Part shown: positions 424-4,809 of the stretch, piece after piece
Position numbering within the stretch: position 1 is the stretch's first letter
Layout of the letters: each line of letters begins with the position of its first letter
IMG/VR virus record: IMGVR_UViG_3300029619_000123
Direction: 5' to 3' (one strand)
From: a virus
Lineage: Duplodnaviria; Heunggongvirae; Uroviricota; Caudoviricetes
Length of the DNA stretch: 5,541 bases
The notes under the pieces: model-generated
What the model was told of the DNA's origin: nothing
The model's database searches: none
What the model saw: the letters and a program-made list of their open reading frames with translations, nothing else
Program-made: the position numbers and the translations under genes

Positions 424-558
424 TCAGGCGGCTGCACCCGCCGCGCTCTGGAATTTGCGCCCCGCCGCGCTTATCAGGCTCTTACCAGCAAACGCCCCTT
501 TGTTGGGGTGTCGCCAGTACGTGTTCACGCTGGGCGGGAAAGGCAGGATCAGCTTCAT
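424..558 (-). pseudogene. RusA-like Holliday-junction resolvase N-terminal remnant (44-aa ORF, truncated relative to ~120-aa family)
   Basis: rc 558->424 translates MKLILPFPPSVNTYWRHPNKGAFAGKSLISAAGRKFQSAAGAAA*. The LPFPPSVNTYWRH stretch resembles the RusA N-terminus (ITLPWPPSNNRYYRH, recalled from memory). ATG overlaps the upstream gene stop as ATGA; SD-like GAGGGG upstream. The stop falls only about 20 nt before the KilA-N start, so the C-terminal two thirds of a RusA are absent. Confidence 0.4.
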
Positions 559-881
559 ACTTTCAGGCCCCTCTCATGTAACCAGTGGGCTGCACGCAGT
601 CTGGCGTTTTCCTCACCGGCAAGCAGTGCGCGGATAATCCCGGCTGCCTCGCTGTCGTCGTCCTTCACTGTGGTATGAAGCGTGATACCCCGGGCCACGC
701 CACGCTTTATCGTGATGACGCCTTTTTTCTCCAGTGCGCGAAGATGCTCCACCGCTGCATTCACCGAACGGTATCCCAGCATGGCTGCCACCTCCTGATT
801 GGTTGGCGGGAAACCACGTTCTTTCTGATAAGAAATCAGCATATCCAGCACCTGCTGCTGGCATTGAGTTAACGTCGTCAT
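555..881 (-). CDS. LexA N-terminal DNA-binding-domain-like protein (108 aa) lacking an S24 peptidase domain
   Basis: From ATG at 881: MTTLTQCQQQVLDMLISYQKERGFPPTNQEVAAMLGYRSVNAAVEHLRALEKKGVITIKRGVARGITL... aligns along its length with the LexA winged-helix domain ([58 protein letters not shown]..., from memory), followed by a ~40-aa tail with no GDSM/KR protease motifs. ATG overlaps the upstream stop as TAATG. The track start at 914 is a GTG; ATG at 881 preferred. Confidence 0.75.
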   Translation of the reverse strand: MTTLTQCQQQVLDMLISYQKERGFPPTNQEVAAMLGYRSVNAAVEHLRALEKKGVITIKRGVARGITLHTTVKDDDSEAAGIIRALLAGEENARLRAAHWLHERGLKV

Positions 882-1369
882 TAAGCCCACACGTAATTCC
901 CTGACAGATACCACTCATCACCCGATACAGCGCGCTTGCTGCTTTTCCGTAAGCCCCGCTCACGGCGCGCCAGAAAATTGTTTCGTTCTGACTGGGAGTG
1001 GCTTTCACGGAATGCCGCCATCCACACGGTTGCAGCACGACGGTATAAGCCCCTGGACTCCAGTTCTTCAGCCTGGCGGGTCAGGCACAAAATTACCCGG
1101 GGATCGTTAGTGCCGACATAGAAATTGCGCACAGGTCTGGTTTCACGAACTGGTTGTGGTTCCGGCTCCTGCGCTCTCTCAGTCAGGCGCGGGAAATGTC
1201 TGCGTGTATTTCCTTCACAACGGTGAGCCACACGCCCACTCTGACGTAACTTGCTTGCTGACTGCAGAACGCGCTGCCGTGAGTAACCTGCAAAAGCATC
1301 TGCAATGTCTCCGGAAGTACACCCCGGATGGGCTTCAATGAATTTCTGAACTTCATTCAAAAGACTCAT
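881..1369 (-). CDS. PerC-family transcriptional regulator-like protein with an N-terminal extension (162 aa)
   Basis: ATG at 1369 with AGGGGG SD about 6 nt upstream. C-terminal half contains AEELESRGLYRRAATVWMAAF, matching the PerC/Pch signature (LE..GLWRRAA..W, from memory). The N-terminal ~60 aa (MSLLNEVQKFIEAHPGCTSGDIADAFAGYSRQRVLQSASKLRQSGRV) looks like a separate small domain. Confidence 0.65.
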   Translation of the reverse strand: MSLLNEVQKFIEAHPGCTSGDIADAFAGYSRQRVLQSASKLRQSGRVAHRCEGNTRRHFPRLTERAQEPEPQPVRETRPVRNFYVGTNDPRVILCLTRQAEELESRGLYRRAATVWMAAFRESHSQSERNNFLARRERGLRKSSKRAVSGDEWYLSGNYVWA

Positions 1370-1371
1370 GA

Positions 1372-2190
1372 TTACCCCCTGAATCCTGCCGGGATCTGGC
1401 TGTAGTCCACGTTGTCGTAACTGGGTTTGAAGTACGGGTCCTCGCGTCTGGCTGCAGATACCGCAGGAACTTCCCAGGATTCTTCGAAATGACGATCCGG
1501 ACCAAAGAACGTGACAGCCTGTTTCACAAATTGTGTGCCGCTGTTACCCATCGCAGATACCCAGCCCGCGTAGCGTTTCACACCTTCCAGCATGGTTTCG
1601 GGTTTTACCCCCTCATTCAAACGGGCTTTCCAGGCTTTGAAGGCTGCAGATTTTGAATTGCCACCAGCACGTTTGGGGTATGCCAGCCATGCCTGCTCAA
1701 ACTCCGGAGAGTATTCCGGTCGGTTTGAACGAACTCGCACAGACTCATCAGCAGATGCACCAACAGCTATTGGTTCATTGACTGGTTCTTTGACTGGTTC
1801 AAAAGAGTGACTGGTTCTGGGTGAATCTCCTGCACCACCCCCTGGTGCAACTCCTGCACTACCTGGTGAATTTGCTGCACCAGATAGTGAATTATTTGCA
1901 CTACCCCCTAGTGAATCTCCTGCACCATCAAGATGAAGGAGATAGATATTACTTGAGTTACCTTTTTCACCTTTCCGGGTGACTTTTTTTACCAGCCCGG
2001 AATCACAAAGGGCCGCAATATGATTCATCACAGAACGTTTGCTAATCTCGCACTGGTCAGCAATATGCTGGTAGCTGGGCCAGCACTCACCCTGATCGCT
2101 GGCATTATCAGCCAGCTTGATCAGAACCAGTTTTCGCAATGGATTACCCACTCGAATTTTCATCGCTTTAACCATCAGCTCCATACTCAT
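1372..2190 (-). CDS. Phage replication initiation protein: N-terminal HTH domain, repetitive linker, DnaT-like C-terminal domain (272 aa)
   Basis: First ATG in frame is at 2190 with strong GGAGGT SD about 6 nt upstream; the track start at 2229 is a TTG. N-terminus MSMELMVKAMKIRVGNPLRKLVLIKLADNASDQGECWPSYQHIADQCEISKRSVMNHIAALCDSGLVKK is HTH-like. C-terminus ...DYSQIPAGFRG resembles the C-terminus of E. coli primosomal protein DnaT (...SQIPPGFRG, from memory). The Gly/Ser/Ala/Pro-rich linker is encoded by the iteron-like repeats. Confidence 0.85.
   Translation of the reverse strand: MSMELMVKAMKIRVGNPLRKLVLIKLADNASDQGECWPSYQHIADQCEISKRSVMNHIAALCDSGLVKKVTRKGEKGNSSNIYLLHLDGAGDSLGGSANNSLSGAANSPGSAGVAPGGGAGDSPRTSHSFEPVKEPVNEPIAVGASADESVRVRSNRPEYSPEFEQAWLAYPKRAGGNSKSAAFKAWKARLNEGVKPETMLEGVKRYAGWVSAMGNSGTQFVKQAVTFFGPDRHFEESWEVPAVSAARREDPYFKPSYDNVDYSQIPAGFRG
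1771..1816. repeat. Short direct repeats GACTGGTTC x3 (plus a partial TGGTTC) adjacent to the iteron block
   Basis: gactggttc at 1780-1788, 1792-1800 and 1808-1816; tggttc at 1771-1776. They encode the EPVKEPVNEP segment of the replication protein. Confidence 0.4.
1821..1927. repeat. Five direct ~17-bp iteron-like repeats (GTGAAT-CTCCTGCACCA family) inside the replication gene; candidate origin of replication
   Basis: Copies at 1821-1837 (gtgaatctcctgcacca), 1846-1862 (gtgcaactcctgcacta), 1866-1882 (gtgaatttgctgcacca), 1887-1903 (gtgaattatttgcacta), 1911-1927 (gtgaatctcctgcacca); first and last are identical. Spacing 20-25 bp, about two helical turns. A moderately AT-rich stretch follows at about 1930-1990. 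Confidence 0.6.
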
Positions 2191-2423
2191 GCTGCACCTC
2201 CGAGATGCTTCATGTTTTTTCCGGAGCAAAAGGCTATAAGCGGCATACTGATGCGGTAATTACGGCCCAGCGGTTCACAAATCACCTTCTGACATTCACG
2301 GTCAACCAGGCTAACACGTAGAACATGCCCTGCAGGCGTGGTGTACCACTGCCCAACTGTAGGAATTGATGTTTTTTTACGCTGAAGCAAACGGCAAATA
2401 TTGAGGATCAACGGATTAAGCAT
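2187..2423 (-). CDS. Hypothetical small protein (78 aa), no family recognised
   Basis: ATG at 2423 with GGAGG SD about 9 nt upstream. Start overlaps the 278-aa ORF stop by 8 nt; its TGA overlaps the replication gene ATG (ATGA). Translation: MLNPLILNICRLLQRKKTSIPTVGQWYTTPAGHVLRVSLVDRECQKVICEPLGRNYRISMPLIAFCSGKNMKHLGGAA. Confidence 0.55.
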   Translation of the reverse strand: MLNPLILNICRLLQRKKTSIPTVGQWYTTPAGHVLRVSLVDRECQKVICEPLGRNYRISMPLIAFCSGKNMKHLGGAA

Positions 2424-3252
2424 GACGATGCCCTCCGCTGATATTCAGGAGACGGTGAATATGAAAATTAGCCTTATCCGCCAGACGAATACGTTCAGCC
2501 TGCAAGTTAAGAAGGGTTTCTACCAAAACCTGATGCGCCTGCGGATCCGAAAGAGTTACCTTGCGCAGAGCACGTAGTGCAGTTGTTACATAACTGAGTT
2601 TATGTAAGTCTTCATCATTCAGACGAGTGAGGGCTGGGACAGTAGCCATGATGGCAGCCTCCGATAACAGTGAATTACCTTCACCACCGGAAACGCCAAT
2701 TTCGCTGGTGGTGAACTGAACGGGGTTGGCGTAACCGGCGTTATCGGAAACCGGCGCACCTTTCGGTGCCCCCGTCCAGCCCACCATAATTTGGGTGTGC
2801 ACAGACACAGACGATAAAAAAGACGCTGGCGCGTCATATATCGCCGATAACATTTCCAGGACGCCAATCCCGTCACCCGCTTTATAAGGTGCCTGAACAG
2901 TGTAACGTCCCGGAATGGCAGAATCAATGTGCTGGTGGTCCTTCACACTCAACAAAATCACGCCTGAATTTCCACAAAGGACTAAAGCACTCATGCGGGT
3001 AGTCTTTGCGAAGATAGATAACGCGCTGTGTTTCTGGTTCCCAACGAATAACATGGACATAAAGCCCTCTTCCGTCACGAAACCAGCGGTTAAGTTCCCG
3101 CACAACTCGCCCCCCACAGTCAGGTAAAGTTCTCTGTGGTTACTTACAGCCAGGTGATTTGGTAATCTGCATTCATGCCGTAACAACAGGTGTTCAGCGA
3201 CACTGACCACCAGCTGTTGCGACAAACGGTTATTTGCCGTTAAACTGTTCAT
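2416..3252 (-). CDS. Hypothetical protein (278 aa), no family recognised; accessory gene in early operon
   Basis: Longest ORF in the region, same strand as neighbours. ATG at 3252 overlaps the upstream gene stop (ATGA); GGAG SD about 10 nt upstream. No Walker A, HNH, DPPY or other motif I can recognise by eye. Confidence 0.7.
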   Translation of the reverse strand: MNSLTANNRLSQQLVVSVAEHLLLRHECRLPNHLAVSNHRELYLTVGGELCGNLTAGFVTEEGFMSMLFVGNQKHSALSIFAKTTRMSALVLCGNSGVILLSVKDHQHIDSAIPGRYTVQAPYKAGDGIGVLEMLSAIYDAPASFLSSVSVHTQIMVGWTGAPKGAPVSDNAGYANPVQFTTSEIGVSGGEGNSLLSEAAIMATVPALTRLNDEDLHKLSYVTTALRALRKVTLSDPQAHQVLVETLLNLQAERIRLADKANFHIHRLLNISGGHRHA

Positions 3253-3812
3253 GCGTTAGTTTCTCCACAGACACAAAACGCCACGACGCCCGGAGCTGCA
3301 CACTCGCGGGCGTCACTCTTTTCTGGAGCGCAAAAGATTTTGTAGACCAGTGCTGCATGCTCTTGGAGCTTCGAAATTGACAGATACAACTCATCATTAA
3401 TTGCTGTCTGCTCGTGTGGCTCCACGACCCCATCTTCGATTGCCGAACGAATCTGCTTTGAGTAATTCCCGATCTGTTCGATGACTTCCAGCAGGCGCTG
3501 GTTTATATCGGCGTTCTCTACTTCCTCAATTTCAGGAAGCGATACGAACACCCCACCAGCAGACTGTGCGACAGCATCCGCAATGTAGTGAGTGTCAGCC
3601 GCGCGCTGTAAAACCATTGCCCATCCCAGCGGGAAAATCTGATCGCCATCGGCACGAAGGCGGTTAAATAATGCGTTCTCTGTTACATCCAGCCAGTCAG
3701 CTGCTTCAGCGTAACCACCCGGCAACGCTGCGATAGTTTTTCTGACAGCTTTCACGTACCACTCAGGCTGTTTTTCTACTTTCCAGTGATACTTACCCAC
3801 GGTTAGCCTCAT
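3249..3812 (-). CDS. Putative CII-like / YdaT-like early regulatory protein (187 aa); function assigned mainly by position after cro
   Basis: ORF begins at ATG 3812, 31 bp after the cro-like stop. Contains an HTH-like segment (GGYAEAADWLDVTENALFNRLR). Size and position match the CII(CP76)/YdaT-like proteins that follow cro-like genes in enterobacterial prophages (from memory, not verified). SD is weak. Confidence 0.5.
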   Translation of the reverse strand: MRLTVGKYHWKVEKQPEWYVKAVRKTIAALPGGYAEAADWLDVTENALFNRLRADGDQIFPLGWAMVLQRAADTHYIADAVAQSAGGVFVSLPEIEEVENADINQRLLEVIEQIGNYSKQIRSAIEDGVVEPHEQTAINDELYLSISKLQEHAALVYKIFCAPEKSDARECAAPGVVAFCVCGETNA

Positions 3813-3843: not shown

Positions 3844-4044
3844 TTAATCTTTCGGATAGATATCCGGTCTTAAGTCAGATTTCGTAATTGCACCTGACGT
3901 GCATTGCTCAAGTTTTTTCGCCAGCACAAAACTGGCTTTTTTATAACCATTGAAAACCAGCCGTAAGTAGCCAGGTGTTGAGCCAACTTTTCCGGCCAAC
4001 TCGCCCTGCTGTTCTTTGGTTAAAGAGTCCCAATACGCTTTCAT
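3844..4044 (-). CDS. Cro-like HTH transcriptional regulator (66 aa; YdaS/Cro family-like)
   Basis: ATG at 4044 with GGAGGT SD (rc of 4054-4059) upstream. MKAYWDSLTKEQQGELAGKVGSTPGYLRLVFNGYKKASFVLAKKLEQCTSGAITKSDLRPDIYPKD contains a classic HTH (QGELAGKVGSTPGYLRLVFNG). Divergent from the repressor gene. The track start at 4149 would overlap the repressor gene and lacks an SD. Confidence 0.8.
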   Translation of the reverse strand: MKAYWDSLTKEQQGELAGKVGSTPGYLRLVFNGYKKASFVLAKKLEQCTSGAITKSDLRPDIYPKD

Positions 4045-4134: not shown

Positions 4135-4809
4135 ATGAAAACAATCCATGACATCCGGCGGTCTAACGCCAGAAAACTGAGAGATGGTGTTGGCGGAAAT
4201 TCATCCTTTGCCACCATGATTGATCGCGAGCCAACCCAAACCAGCAGGTTTATGGGGGATGGCGCTACTAAAAATATCGGTGACAGCATGGCACGGCACA
4301 TCGAAAAATGTTTCGACCTGCCTGTCGGATGGCTTGATCAAGAACACCAGACAACGAACATCACAAAAAAACCTGATGTTTCAATCACTAACAAACAAAT
4401 AACGTTAGTCCCTGTCATATCATGGGTACAGGCCGGAGCATGGAAAGAAGTTGGCTATTCTGAGGTTGATTTGAGCACAGCAGAAACGTATCCCTGCCCT
4501 GTACCCTGTGGCGAAATGACTTATATCTTGCGGGTGATTGGTGATTCAATGATTGATGAGTACCGCCCTGGAGACATGATTTTTGTTGATCCCGAAGTCC
4601 CTGCCTGCCACGGTGACGACGTTATTGCATTGATGCACGATACAGGCGAAACCACCTTCAAGCGATTGATAGAAGATGGAACACAGCGTTATCTCAAAGC
4701 ATTAAACCCAAACTGGCCTGAGCCTTACATTAAGATTAACGGTAATTGCTCTATAATTGGTACAGTGATTTTCTCGGGAAAACCAAGAAGATACACAATA
4801 AAGGCCTAA
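4135..4809 (+). CDS. CI-like prophage repressor with C-terminal LexA/S24 peptidase autocleavage domain (224 aa)
   Basis: S24 hallmarks all present: Ala-Gly cleavage site (VQAGAW), catalytic Ser motif (VIGDSMID), catalytic Lys (TTFKRL). N-terminal region ends with a ...LPVGWLD segment typical of repressor DNA-binding domains. Divergent from cro-like gene. Confidence 0.9.
   Translation: MKTIHDIRRSNARKLRDGVGGNSSFATMIDREPTQTSRFMGDGATKNIGDSMARHIEKCFDLPVGWLDQEHQTTNITKKPDVSITNKQITLVPVISWVQAGAWKEVGYSEVDLSTAETYPCPVPCGEMTYILRVIGDSMIDEYRPGDMIFVDPEVPACHGDDVIALMHDTGETTFKRLIEDGTQRYLKALNPNWPEPYIKINGNCSIIGTVIFSGKPRRYTIKA

Follow-up and report, generated by a model that had tools for sequence, protein, structure and literature searches.

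Introduction

In the Caudoviricetes record IMGVR_UViG_3300029619_000123, an interval on the minus strand (2187-3252) separates ymfL, a gene for a CII-like regulator, from a gene for a replication initiator, and the question that this locus raises is what the interval encodes. It was studied within a stretch of 5,541 nucleotides (nt), referred to here as the window, and coordinates refer to this window unless another genome is named. The initial annotation read the interval as two unassigned, translationally coupled genes for products of 278 and 78 amino acids (aa), inserted after the CII-like gene, and considered anti-defence, host takeover or superinfection exclusion as their possible role. 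The evidence assembled here argues, with a probability that we put at roughly 70%, for a P4/P1-type antisense-RNA immunity cassette that lies between a ymfM/DUF4222 gene pair and the replication initiator of an e14/SfV-like prophage. The interval holds the elements of such a cassette, with their RNA structures, covarying complementarities and nested and overlapping frames, in a layout homologous to that of P4.

The open reading frame (ORF) listing returns both frames just as first described, at 2416-3252 (278 aa) and 2187-2423 (78 aa) on the minus strand, together with the overlaps that join them to ymfL (ATGA, 3249-3252), to each other (8 nt, 2416-2423) and to the replication gene (ATGA, 2187-2190), and with the corresponding Shine-Dalgarno (SD) sites (GGAGA 9 nt before ATG 3252, GGAGG before ATG 2423, and GGAGG before ATG 2190). 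Through these overlaps, translation of the frames is tied to that of ymfL and of the replication gene, and they are thus part of the early rightward operon, as had been proposed. Their description as two unassigned genes, however, does not hold. The 278-aa ORF matches the Pfam family Phage_ASH and several PHROGs, the 78-aa ORF (orf78) belongs to phrog_1153, and a 59-aa DUF4222 gene, a nested ORF of 77 aa (orf77) and, on the same strand, two RNA genes recognized by Rfam models lie in the interval as well.

Identification of a C4 antisense RNA and its targets

The central element of the interval is a match to the Rfam C4 family, accompanied by a region complementary to its loops:

2704-2791, minus strand: C4 / P4 CI-type antisense RNA (Rfam RF01695, 82.8 bits against a gathering score of 45, E 1e-16, model positions 1-87)
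2658-2700, minus strand: downstream target region, analogue of P4 seqC and of P1 a2/b2 (a2 AUUGGCG, 2694-2700; b2 GUUAUCGG, 2661-2668)

The minimum free energy fold of the C4 element (-47.8 kcal/mol) consists of the expected long closing stem and two internal hairpins, and compensatory changes are seen in 16 of its 24 consensus pairs among 21 diverse sequences. The loop of hairpin 2 presents the sequence b' (CCGAUAAC, 2740-2747), and a single-stranded segment presents a' (CGCCAA, 2726-2731). Across the 2.7-kb early transcript, the best partner of b' is the segment 2655-2668 (GUUAUCGGAGG; 11 bp, -14.7 kcal/mol), and the second-best is b1 (2844-2851), an 8-bp pairing within the leader RNA described below; a' matches AUUGGCG at both 2862-2868 and 2694-2700. 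The b2 sequence overlaps the SD GGAGG (2658-2662) that serves ATG 2649, the start of orf77. As in other members of the C4 family, the loops are complementary to flanking a1/b1 and a2/b2 sequences, and b2 lies over the ribosome-binding site (RBS) of the first downstream ORF. The arrangement is that of the a1/b1-c4-a2/b2 scheme of P1/P7 and of the seqA-CI-seqC scheme of P4.

These complementarities covary. In a survey of 57 unique C4-like loci from viral contigs, which carry 17 loop sequences, the match between b' and b2 is perfect (8/8) at a fixed position in 10 of the 17 loop types and falls to 0% when loops are swapped between loci, and the match between b' and b1 reaches at least 7/8 in 14 of the 17, against 5.5% with swapped loops. 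The a', a1 and a2 sequences switch jointly, from CGCCAA/UUGGCG to UCUCAC/GUGAGA, in P4 and in two further loci (L117 and L149). Furthermore, near-identical loci of the orf77 type display the specificities GAUAAC, GUAUGC and UUGAUC, with b1, b' and b2 changed in concert; at least three specificities are thus interchangeable in a single phage lineage.

The leader RNA and its predicted promoter

Upstream of C4, and on the same strand, the interval contains a second RNA gene and a candidate promoter for it:

2899-2927, minus strand: predicted internal sigma70-like promoter (-35 TTGATT, 2922-2927; 17-nt spacer; -10 TACACT, 2899-2904; +1 near 2892)
2816-2892, minus strand: isrK / P4 seqA-like leader RNA (Rfam RF01394, 55.4 bits against a gathering score of 50, full length)

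The leader carries its own copies of the target sites, a1 (AUUGGCG, 2862-2868) and b1 (GUUAUCGG, 2844-2851), and its 3' end is an intrinsic terminator identified in the terminator scan (GACGCGCCAGCGUC followed by U6, with the stem at 2822-2835 and the U-run at 2816-2821). Compensatory changes are found in 9 of the 14 predicted pairs of the element. Its membership in the isrK/seqA group is indicated by a score above the gathering threshold and by the terminator, to which the predicted promoter would add the third element, as the putative analogue of P4 PLE and Gifsy-1 PisrK. At least 80% of 51 unique upstream sequences keep the -10 pattern TAnnnT 6-7 nt before the RNA start, and TTGAC-type -35 hexamers are present in distant loci.

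Comparison with the immunity regions of P4 and P1/P7

The same Rfam models locate the two RNAs of P4 (NC_001609) at 8615-8692 (isrK) and 8420-8507 (C4). A 214-aa frame of P4 (8168-8812) crosses both of them and ends in a 65-aa peptide, MATTLTPSHPEF... (MATTLTP...), the size of which matches that published for Kil, and the junction '...EAAIMAT...' of this frame corresponds to the junction 'SEAAIMATVPAL' in the window. The two systems share the order and strand of their elements, the a/b complementarities, the nested genes, a long frame coupled to the upstream gene, the location of the cassette upstream of replication genes and the presence of an Ash match over the RNAs. In the published account of P4 immunity, a constitutive promoter inside eta is described as giving rise to a transcript that is soon terminated through CI-seqA interactions and is processed to CI (PMC10111431). 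The same account describes Kil as a truncated Eta, with full-length Eta made only from an upstream promoter and coupled to the upstream gene, and states that Eta translation prevents CI-dependent termination (PMC10111431, citing Forti 1999). Relatives of CI and seqA have been detected with the Rfam C4 and isrK models in that work as well (PMC10111431).

The C4/CI family of immunity RNAs, with the nested-gene design of P4, is hence already known, and the window differs from it in four respects. The cassette resides in a lambdoid prophage that has a protein repressor within a CI/Cro/CII-like switch, whereas P4 is a satellite; the cargo is orf77, a 77-aa protein unrelated to Kil past the first ~7 residues; orf78 is present as an additional coupled gene ahead of the replication gene; and the long frame, the putative bypass frame, includes a fused YmfM homologue and shares part of its sequence with DUF4222. 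The spacer between leader and C4 is also shorter, at 24 nt in the window against ~107 nt in P4.

In the immI region of P1/P7, the loops of the c4 RNA pair with a1/b1 and a2/b2, b2 covers the RBS of the first downstream ORF and the downstream genes depend on its translation, and many interchangeable specificities exist, as in P1/P7 heteroimmunity. Compared with immI through this known biology only, the window shows the same C4 family, the same scheme of a and b targets, an RBS-covering b2 and a multiplicity of specificities, whereas its cargo differs from the icd and ant genes of the c4-icd-ant arrangement. No antirepressor domain was found in the window; in sister phages, Rha or Ant domains fill the slot.

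The same isrK-C4 cassette is seen in Shiga toxin (Stx)-converting phages, where it precedes genes for Rha-domain (antirepressor-like) proteins. The Stx1a-converting phage Stx1_499 carries it between regulatory genes and repO, inside a 340-aa 'Ant' ORF (L084, 2286-3308), and VT2phi_272 has it, unannotated, ahead of kil, recT and exo among the early-left genes (L085, 2501-3389), which form an operon.

The long reading frame and the Ash family

Both RNAs are contained in the longer of the two frames first described:

2416-3252, minus strand: composite read-through frame of 278 aa (codons 1 to ~103, YmfM homologue; codons 50-110, overlap with DUF4222; codons 121-183, over the RNAs; codons 202-278, orf77)

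This ORF is SfV orf37, labelled 'immunity region' by the authors of SfV. Several PHROGs match it, each over a different part, and its sole Pfam match is Phage_ASH (PF10554; residues 117-210, E 4e-17, 62.9 bits against a cut-off of 26), which in nucleotide coordinates (2623-2904) coincides with the isrK-like and C4 RNAs. Among 31 haplotypes of this locus type from viral contigs, the variable sites of the isrK-C4 region up to ATG 2649 (2650-2892) are distributed 16:16:6 over codon positions 1:2:3, whereas those of orf77 (5:3:9) and of orf78 in its own frame (6:2:13) follow the pattern of coding sequences. The middle third of the 278-aa ORF, where the Ash match lies, is without a coding signature. 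Neither the third-position or synonymous excess nor the conserved frame expected of a protein domain was found for Ash in these comparisons, and in the distant loci L103, L116, L165, L178 and L188 the long frame is closed within C4. In P4, the 214-aa eta/kil frame gives a full-length Ash match (E 4.5e-23; Ash region 8330-8704, L207), the ORF formerly described as 'cI gene product (AA 1-137)' matches Ash too, and so does a 44-aa 'host cell division inhibitor Icd-like' ORF that lies over C4 in Klebsiella phage KpLi5. The Pfam Ash family, the 'ash family protein' of the Prokaryotic Genome Annotation Pipeline (PGAP) and the 'transcriptional regulator' of PHROGs appear to be largely conceptual translations of isrK/seqA-like and C4/CI RNA genes.

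PGAP divides the same DNA into a 181-aa 'ash family protein' (2416-2961) and a 59-aa DUF4222 protein in another frame (2924-3103), and it calls the locus in this way in hundreds of E. coli genomes. Taken at face value, together with the 'transcriptional regulator' label of PHROGs and the existence of a curated Ash family in Pfam, this annotation implies that the long frame is untranslated as a whole and that the real genes are DUF4222 and an Ash protein that is a true, folded transcription regulator. We regard this as highly improbable. In the window as in P4, whose immunity is carried by the CI RNA (PMC10111431), the Ash profile falls on the isrK-like and C4 RNAs, and the short Icd-like ORF and the codon-position ratio given above speak for the same interpretation. 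In VT2phi_272, furthermore, the same DNA is left unannotated and the Rha gene starts right after it, and neither an SD nor a start context is conserved at the 181-aa start, in contrast to the MAT... start with its GGAGG, which all loci retain. Calls of Ash or of a 'transcriptional regulator', which occur in about half of complete E. coli genomes, would then sit over an RNA switch, and a widespread annotation would be corrected.

The long frame is open in 31 of 31 haplotypes of this locus type, and in the wider survey it remains open from -100 or further upstream to +142 or further downstream around C4 in 48 of the 57 loci; the other two frames are open in 11 and 4. Its first ATG precedes the internal promoter in 28 of the 32 locus classes and abuts the stop of the upstream ORF in 20. 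In the window, 360 nt separate this ATG from the predicted +1 downstream, the long frame overlaps ymfL in the ATGA, and orf77 is nested in the frame. Such openness fits selection for translation through the region, and not for the encoded peptide, as has been described for eta.

An ORF that is open in every haplotype and translationally coupled on both sides might also be taken for one of two ordinary protein genes that act together in anti-defence, host takeover or exclusion, the RNA matches being incidental, and two further observations point the same way: the N-terminal ~100 aa resemble YmfM, a blocker of the Z-ring when expressed (bioRxiv 10.1101/2020.11.19.390815), and orf77 and orf78 are genuinely coding, with no function assigned. 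Such a two-protein module nevertheless seems very unlikely to us, given that the RNA matches lie far above threshold and are backed by structure and by target covariation, that the middle third of the ORF lacks a coding signature and that the frame selected at 2924-3103 is that of DUF4222. The 278-aa product is also not conserved as a unit, with the same frame ending elsewhere in Rha domains or Kil-like peptides. Searches of PADLOC-DB returned no match at E <= 0.1 for the 278-aa ORF, orf77, orf78 or DUF4222, so that the suggestion of an anti-defence role finds no counterpart among its defence models; NCBIfam returned none for the 278-aa, 78-aa and 59-aa products. A replication-accessory function, which the initial annotation had itself named as a competing explanation, is likewise not indicated, as no helicase-loader or primase-associated family was matched in Pfam, NCBIfam or PHROGs. 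The suggestion of superinfection exclusion or host takeover did point in roughly the right direction, the C4/CI RNAs being immunity determinants and the first ~100 residues being homologous to YmfM, but the locus does not consist of two simple protein genes.

A model for the proposed immunity cassette

In the antisense-RNA model, the internal promoter (about 2899-2927) would be constitutive and would produce the isrK/seqA-like leader ending at the intrinsic terminator, and read-through of this terminator would place the C4/CI RNA on the same transcript. The a' and b' sequences of C4 would then pair on either side, with a1/b1 of the leader and with a2/b2 a short way downstream. Since b2 overlaps the orf77 SD, C4 would block translation of orf77, and since orf78 and the replication gene depend on orf77 through overlapping start and stop codons, both would stay silent, owing to lost coupling and probably to Rho polarity too. 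After induction, transcripts from pR would be translated through ymfL and, via the ATGA, into the 278-aa frame. Ribosomes moving across the terminator, C4 and b2 would prevent termination and antisense pairing, and they would also bring translation to orf78 and to the replication gene. The 278-aa ORF would thus most likely act as eta does in P4, with orf77 taking the place of kil. Under this model, e14/SfV-like phages and many Stx-converting phages would have, immediately ahead of their replication genes, a second layer of immunity based on RNA, with a bearing on prophage induction, on cross-immunity between co-resident prophages and on the replication of Stx phages.

The same cassette might alternatively follow the logic of the isrK - orf45 - anrP - isrJ locus of the Salmonella prophage Gifsy-1, where the IsrK - orf45/STnc1160 - anrP arrangement works by translational coupling, the ORF starts about 107 nt from the isrK start and IsrK activates anrP 100-fold via orf45 translation (PMC4825925). 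Gifsy-1 and the window share an isrK-family leader equipped with its own terminator and promoter (predicted, in the window), a C4-like RNA after it in whose 5' stem an AUG lies, and coupling to the next gene. In the window, an AUG (2785-2787) that lies inside C4 and in frame with orf77 maps to the start position of Gifsy-1 orf45. A short isrK-like RNA acting in trans could open the RBS of the C4-embedded ORF that begins at this AUG (AUG 2787, 123 aa), and the module would then trigger orf77, orf78 and replication. We consider this unlikely. The isrK match and the terminator are present, the AUG is placed about 106 nt from the RNA start, as is the first AUG of Gifsy-1 orf45, and phrog_4908 corresponds to the 123-aa form. 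On the other hand, AUG 2787 has no recognizable SD and is buried in the long C4 stem, the strongest and best-covarying complementarity is that of the C4 loop to the SD of ATG 2649, which predicts occlusion, and orf45 stops at the anrP start, whereas the frames are fused in the window. Gifsy-1 differs further in its antirepressor cargo, in the positive action of IsrK and in a location near antQ and not before replication genes, and its orf45 is a separate 45-codon ORF whose counterpart here is fused to orf77.

Several considerations weigh against the antisense-RNA model in the form given above. Promoter activity, RNA processing, repression as the sign of regulation, Rho polarity and ribosome bypass are all steps that we infer. 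The consensus promoter scan did not call the internal promoter, which matches only 8 of 12 consensus positions and falls below the scan threshold, so that its placement derives from conservation in the alignment only. The openness of the long frame could in part have been inherited along with the conserved RNA sequence, and the loci compared are related, so the counts reported here represent non-independent events. Translation of the 278-aa ORF means that two frames are read over 2924-3103, for which, in the case of ymfM/DUF4222, the support comes solely from sequence statistics. Lastly, the short IsrK RNA of Gifsy-1 activates the downstream ORF (PMC4825925), and the sign of regulation in the window could hence differ from the one proposed.

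The overlapping ymfM and DUF4222 genes

The 5' part of the long frame overlaps a gene that the initial annotation had not listed:

2924-3103, minus strand, in a different frame from the 278-aa ORF: DUF4222 (RgdR-family) gene, 59 aa, GTG start (Pfam 50.9 bits against a cut-off of 27, E 1e-13; phrog_1343, E 2.5e-36; also called by PGAP)

The TGA stop of this gene falls within the -35 hexamer of the predicted internal promoter. Homologues of its product (51 in number) are spread across the Enterobacteriaceae, and its AlphaFold2 model (predicted local distance difference test score, 86) is an SH3-like barrel. Between the window and E. coli K-12, the codon changes over 2924-3103 are 24 synonymous and 21 non-synonymous in the DUF4222 frame, against 3 and 41 in the 278-aa frame and 5 and 39 in the third frame, and this synonymous excess identifies DUF4222 as the strongly selected frame. 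Over its 5' third, the 278-aa ORF shows homology to ymfM of the K-12 prophage e14 (32% identity, E 1e-7), which has the same ATGA coupling to ymfL.

A survey of 44 diverse loci from many enterobacterial genera (43 unique DNAs) indicates that the two frames evolve together. A YmfM-frame ORF of ~110 aa starts about 150-300 nt upstream of DUF4222 in all 44 loci, mostly with an ATGA on the stop of a ymfL-like gene, and, with the exception of L208, it ends 157-166 nt into DUF4222. The YmfM frame is stop-free in 43 of the 43 unique DNAs, against ~6% expected from the protein sequences and E. coli codon usage, and Val and Leu sites at which a synonymous codon could create a stop use safe codons in 170 of 170 cases, CTG and GTG being common at other sites. 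The stop-free frame and the avoidance of stop codons define ymfM and DUF4222 as a conserved overlapping gene pair. The conserved ~110-aa ORF and the same two counts led us to reject the view of the YmfM-like N-terminus as a non-coding artefact, which the selection on DUF4222 and the frame-shifting indels relative to K-12 had suggested.

The window does not have the typical form of YmfM (108-114 aa, with a stop 157-166 nt into DUF4222): start and homology are present, the stop is lost and the frame runs on to 278 aa. In Citrobacter braakii ATCC 51113 (L208, ~1850-3000), the YmfM frame also has no stop and continues through DUF4222, the leader and C4 into a Rha-domain gene (383 aa). This independent case suggests that fusion between ymfM and the putative bypass frame recurs where the cassette sits behind DUF4222.

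The e14 prophage of K-12 has the same 59-aa ORF, unannotated (NC_000913.3, 1204001-1204180, plus strand; L003, 2002-2181), with a TTG start after AAGGAG and a DUF4222 match of E 8.6e-19, and an 11-nt overlap joins its stop to the ATG of ymfN/oweE. YmfM (SfiC) has been reported as an e14 cell-division inhibitor that blocks Z-ring formation when expressed, in a study that cloned the whole ymfM ORF and reports no frame-specific test (bioRxiv 10.1101/2020.11.19.390815). The K-12 ymfM clone from which the Z-ring phenotype derives also contains the DUF4222 ORF. In K-12, ymfM hence overlaps a conserved, unannotated DUF4222 gene, the stop of which is coupled to the replication gene, and which of the two products is SfiC becomes a testable question.

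The only studied DUF4222 protein that was found is RgdR of enterohaemorrhagic E. coli OI-51, a prophage regulator of type III secretion that requires its RGD motif (PMC10877973). This motif is absent from the DUF4222 protein of the window, which reads VIRWEPE at residues 18-24, across the R20 position to which the review, through an R20C mutant, assigns the motif (PMC10877973), in a comparison made by position and without an alignment to RgdR. The window hence resembles e14 ymfM and RgdR in its YmfM homology, in the ATGA coupling to ymfL, in the overlap with a DUF4222 ORF and in a 59-aa gene of the RgdR family, and it differs from them in a YmfM frame without the usual stop and in the sequence IRWEP at the RGD position.

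A broader scenario, to which we attach only tentative and rather doubtful standing, would join the two parts of the locus. A lambdoid family may have grafted a P4-type switch onto its replication module and fused the bypass frame to ymfM, so that translating an SOS-induced division inhibitor unlocks replication. The scenario also includes ymfM and DUF4222 as a dual-coding pair, with DUF4222 missing from the K-12 annotation, and SfiC filamentation may belong wholly or partly to DUF4222.

The cargo gene and its coupled neighbor

Downstream of C4, the interval ends in two overlapping coding genes:

2416-2649, minus strand: orf77, nested first gene after C4, in the position of P4 kil (own SD; phrog_4908; alternative 123-aa form from AUG 2787)
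2187-2423, minus strand: orf78 (phrog_1153; predicted N-terminal helix and SH3/Tudor-like beta-barrel)

The start motif MAT(V/I)P.L, with GGAG(G) 7-8 nt upstream, is common to all enterobacterial C4 loci. Past the first ~7 codons, the genes diverge into orf77, 181-aa Rha-domain proteins, a 120-aa protein and P4 Kil-like proteins of 64-65 aa. Different genes thus follow a common start, which defines the slot after C4 as a cargo slot and answers the earlier question of whether this position is variable or conserved: it is variable, occupied in related loci by orf77, by Rha-domain or P4 Kil-like 64-aa proteins, or by others. Two homologues of orf77 (P0097 and P0103) are 46% identical to it and keep VTTALR(S/A)LRKV, and a search of 1.8 billion proteins returned a handful of relatives only, all of them with the Ash-frame extension.

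The orf78 gene is coupled to both of its neighbors, by the 8-nt overlap with orf77 and by the ATGA shared with the replication gene. Its product belongs to a narrow, nameless enterobacterial family, and a relative with 49% identity precedes repO in Stx1_499. Comparison with DUF4222 by hhalign gives E 0.057, and the hidden Markov model of phrog_1153 gives E 0.008, with both alignments in the same register; the models of the two proteins have the same order of secondary-structure elements and match the same Protein Data Bank chains. The SH3-like barrel is too common for the fold to prove homology. These alignments and predicted structures are suggestive only, and orf78 is likely a distant DUF4222-like protein that would re-establish, beyond the insertion, the coupling with the replication gene.

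Genomic context of the cassette

Read on the minus strand, the window corresponds to the immunity and early-right part of a lambdoid prophage of the e14/SfV type. Its identity to Escherichia phage 2H10 is 100%, and that to SfV and Ayreon is 96%. Among 5426 complete E. coli genomes, 2986 contain part of the interval and 439 contain at least 80% of it. The genes that flank the interval include:

4135-4809, plus strand: ymfK, CI-like S24 repressor
3844-4044, minus strand: ymfT, cro-like
3249-3812, minus strand: ymfL, CII-like regulator (Pfam Phage_CP76, E 4e-14; NCBIfam YmfL equivalog, E 7.5e-50; PGAP 'protein YmfL')
1372-2190, minus strand: replication initiator, HTH_36/DnaD-like (phrog_270, E 1e-88; Pfam HTH_36 and DnaD_N)

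On the minus strand, the order is ymfT, ymfL, the interval 2187-3252, the replication initiator, a PerC-like gene, a gene for a protein with a LexA DNA-binding domain, and RusA. The canonical order in related loci is ymfL, ymfM/DUF4222 and the replication gene, with the DUF4222 stop overlapping the start of the replication initiator in 41 of 44 loci. An insertion after the CII-like gene, as first proposed, therefore exists, but its extent has to be redrawn: since ymfM/DUF4222 normally occupy that position, the insertion proper consists of the RNA cassette, orf77 and orf78. The Citrobacter braakii locus L208 shares with the window an insertion made of the promoter, the isrK-like leader, C4, a cargo gene and orf78.

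Outside the interval, an inverted repeat on the plus strand (3284-3322; GACGCCCG...CGGGCGTC, extendable by GAG/CUC and followed by ACTCTTTTCT) is antisense to the 3' end of ymfL and resembles the terminator of the lambda oop RNA, itself antisense to the 3' end of cII. It was not called in the terminator scan because its loop exceeds 8 nt, and no convincing candidate for a plus-strand promoter was found upstream of it.

Between the PerC-like gene and RusA, the window encodes a 119-aa protein (555-914, minus strand) that consists of a LexA DNA-binding domain only (Pfam E 4e-19), without the S24 cleavage domain, and that PGAP annotates as 'LexA repressor' in a shorter form of 108 aa. An uncleavable LexA-like binder from an SOS-inducible prophage could modulate the SOS regulon of the host.

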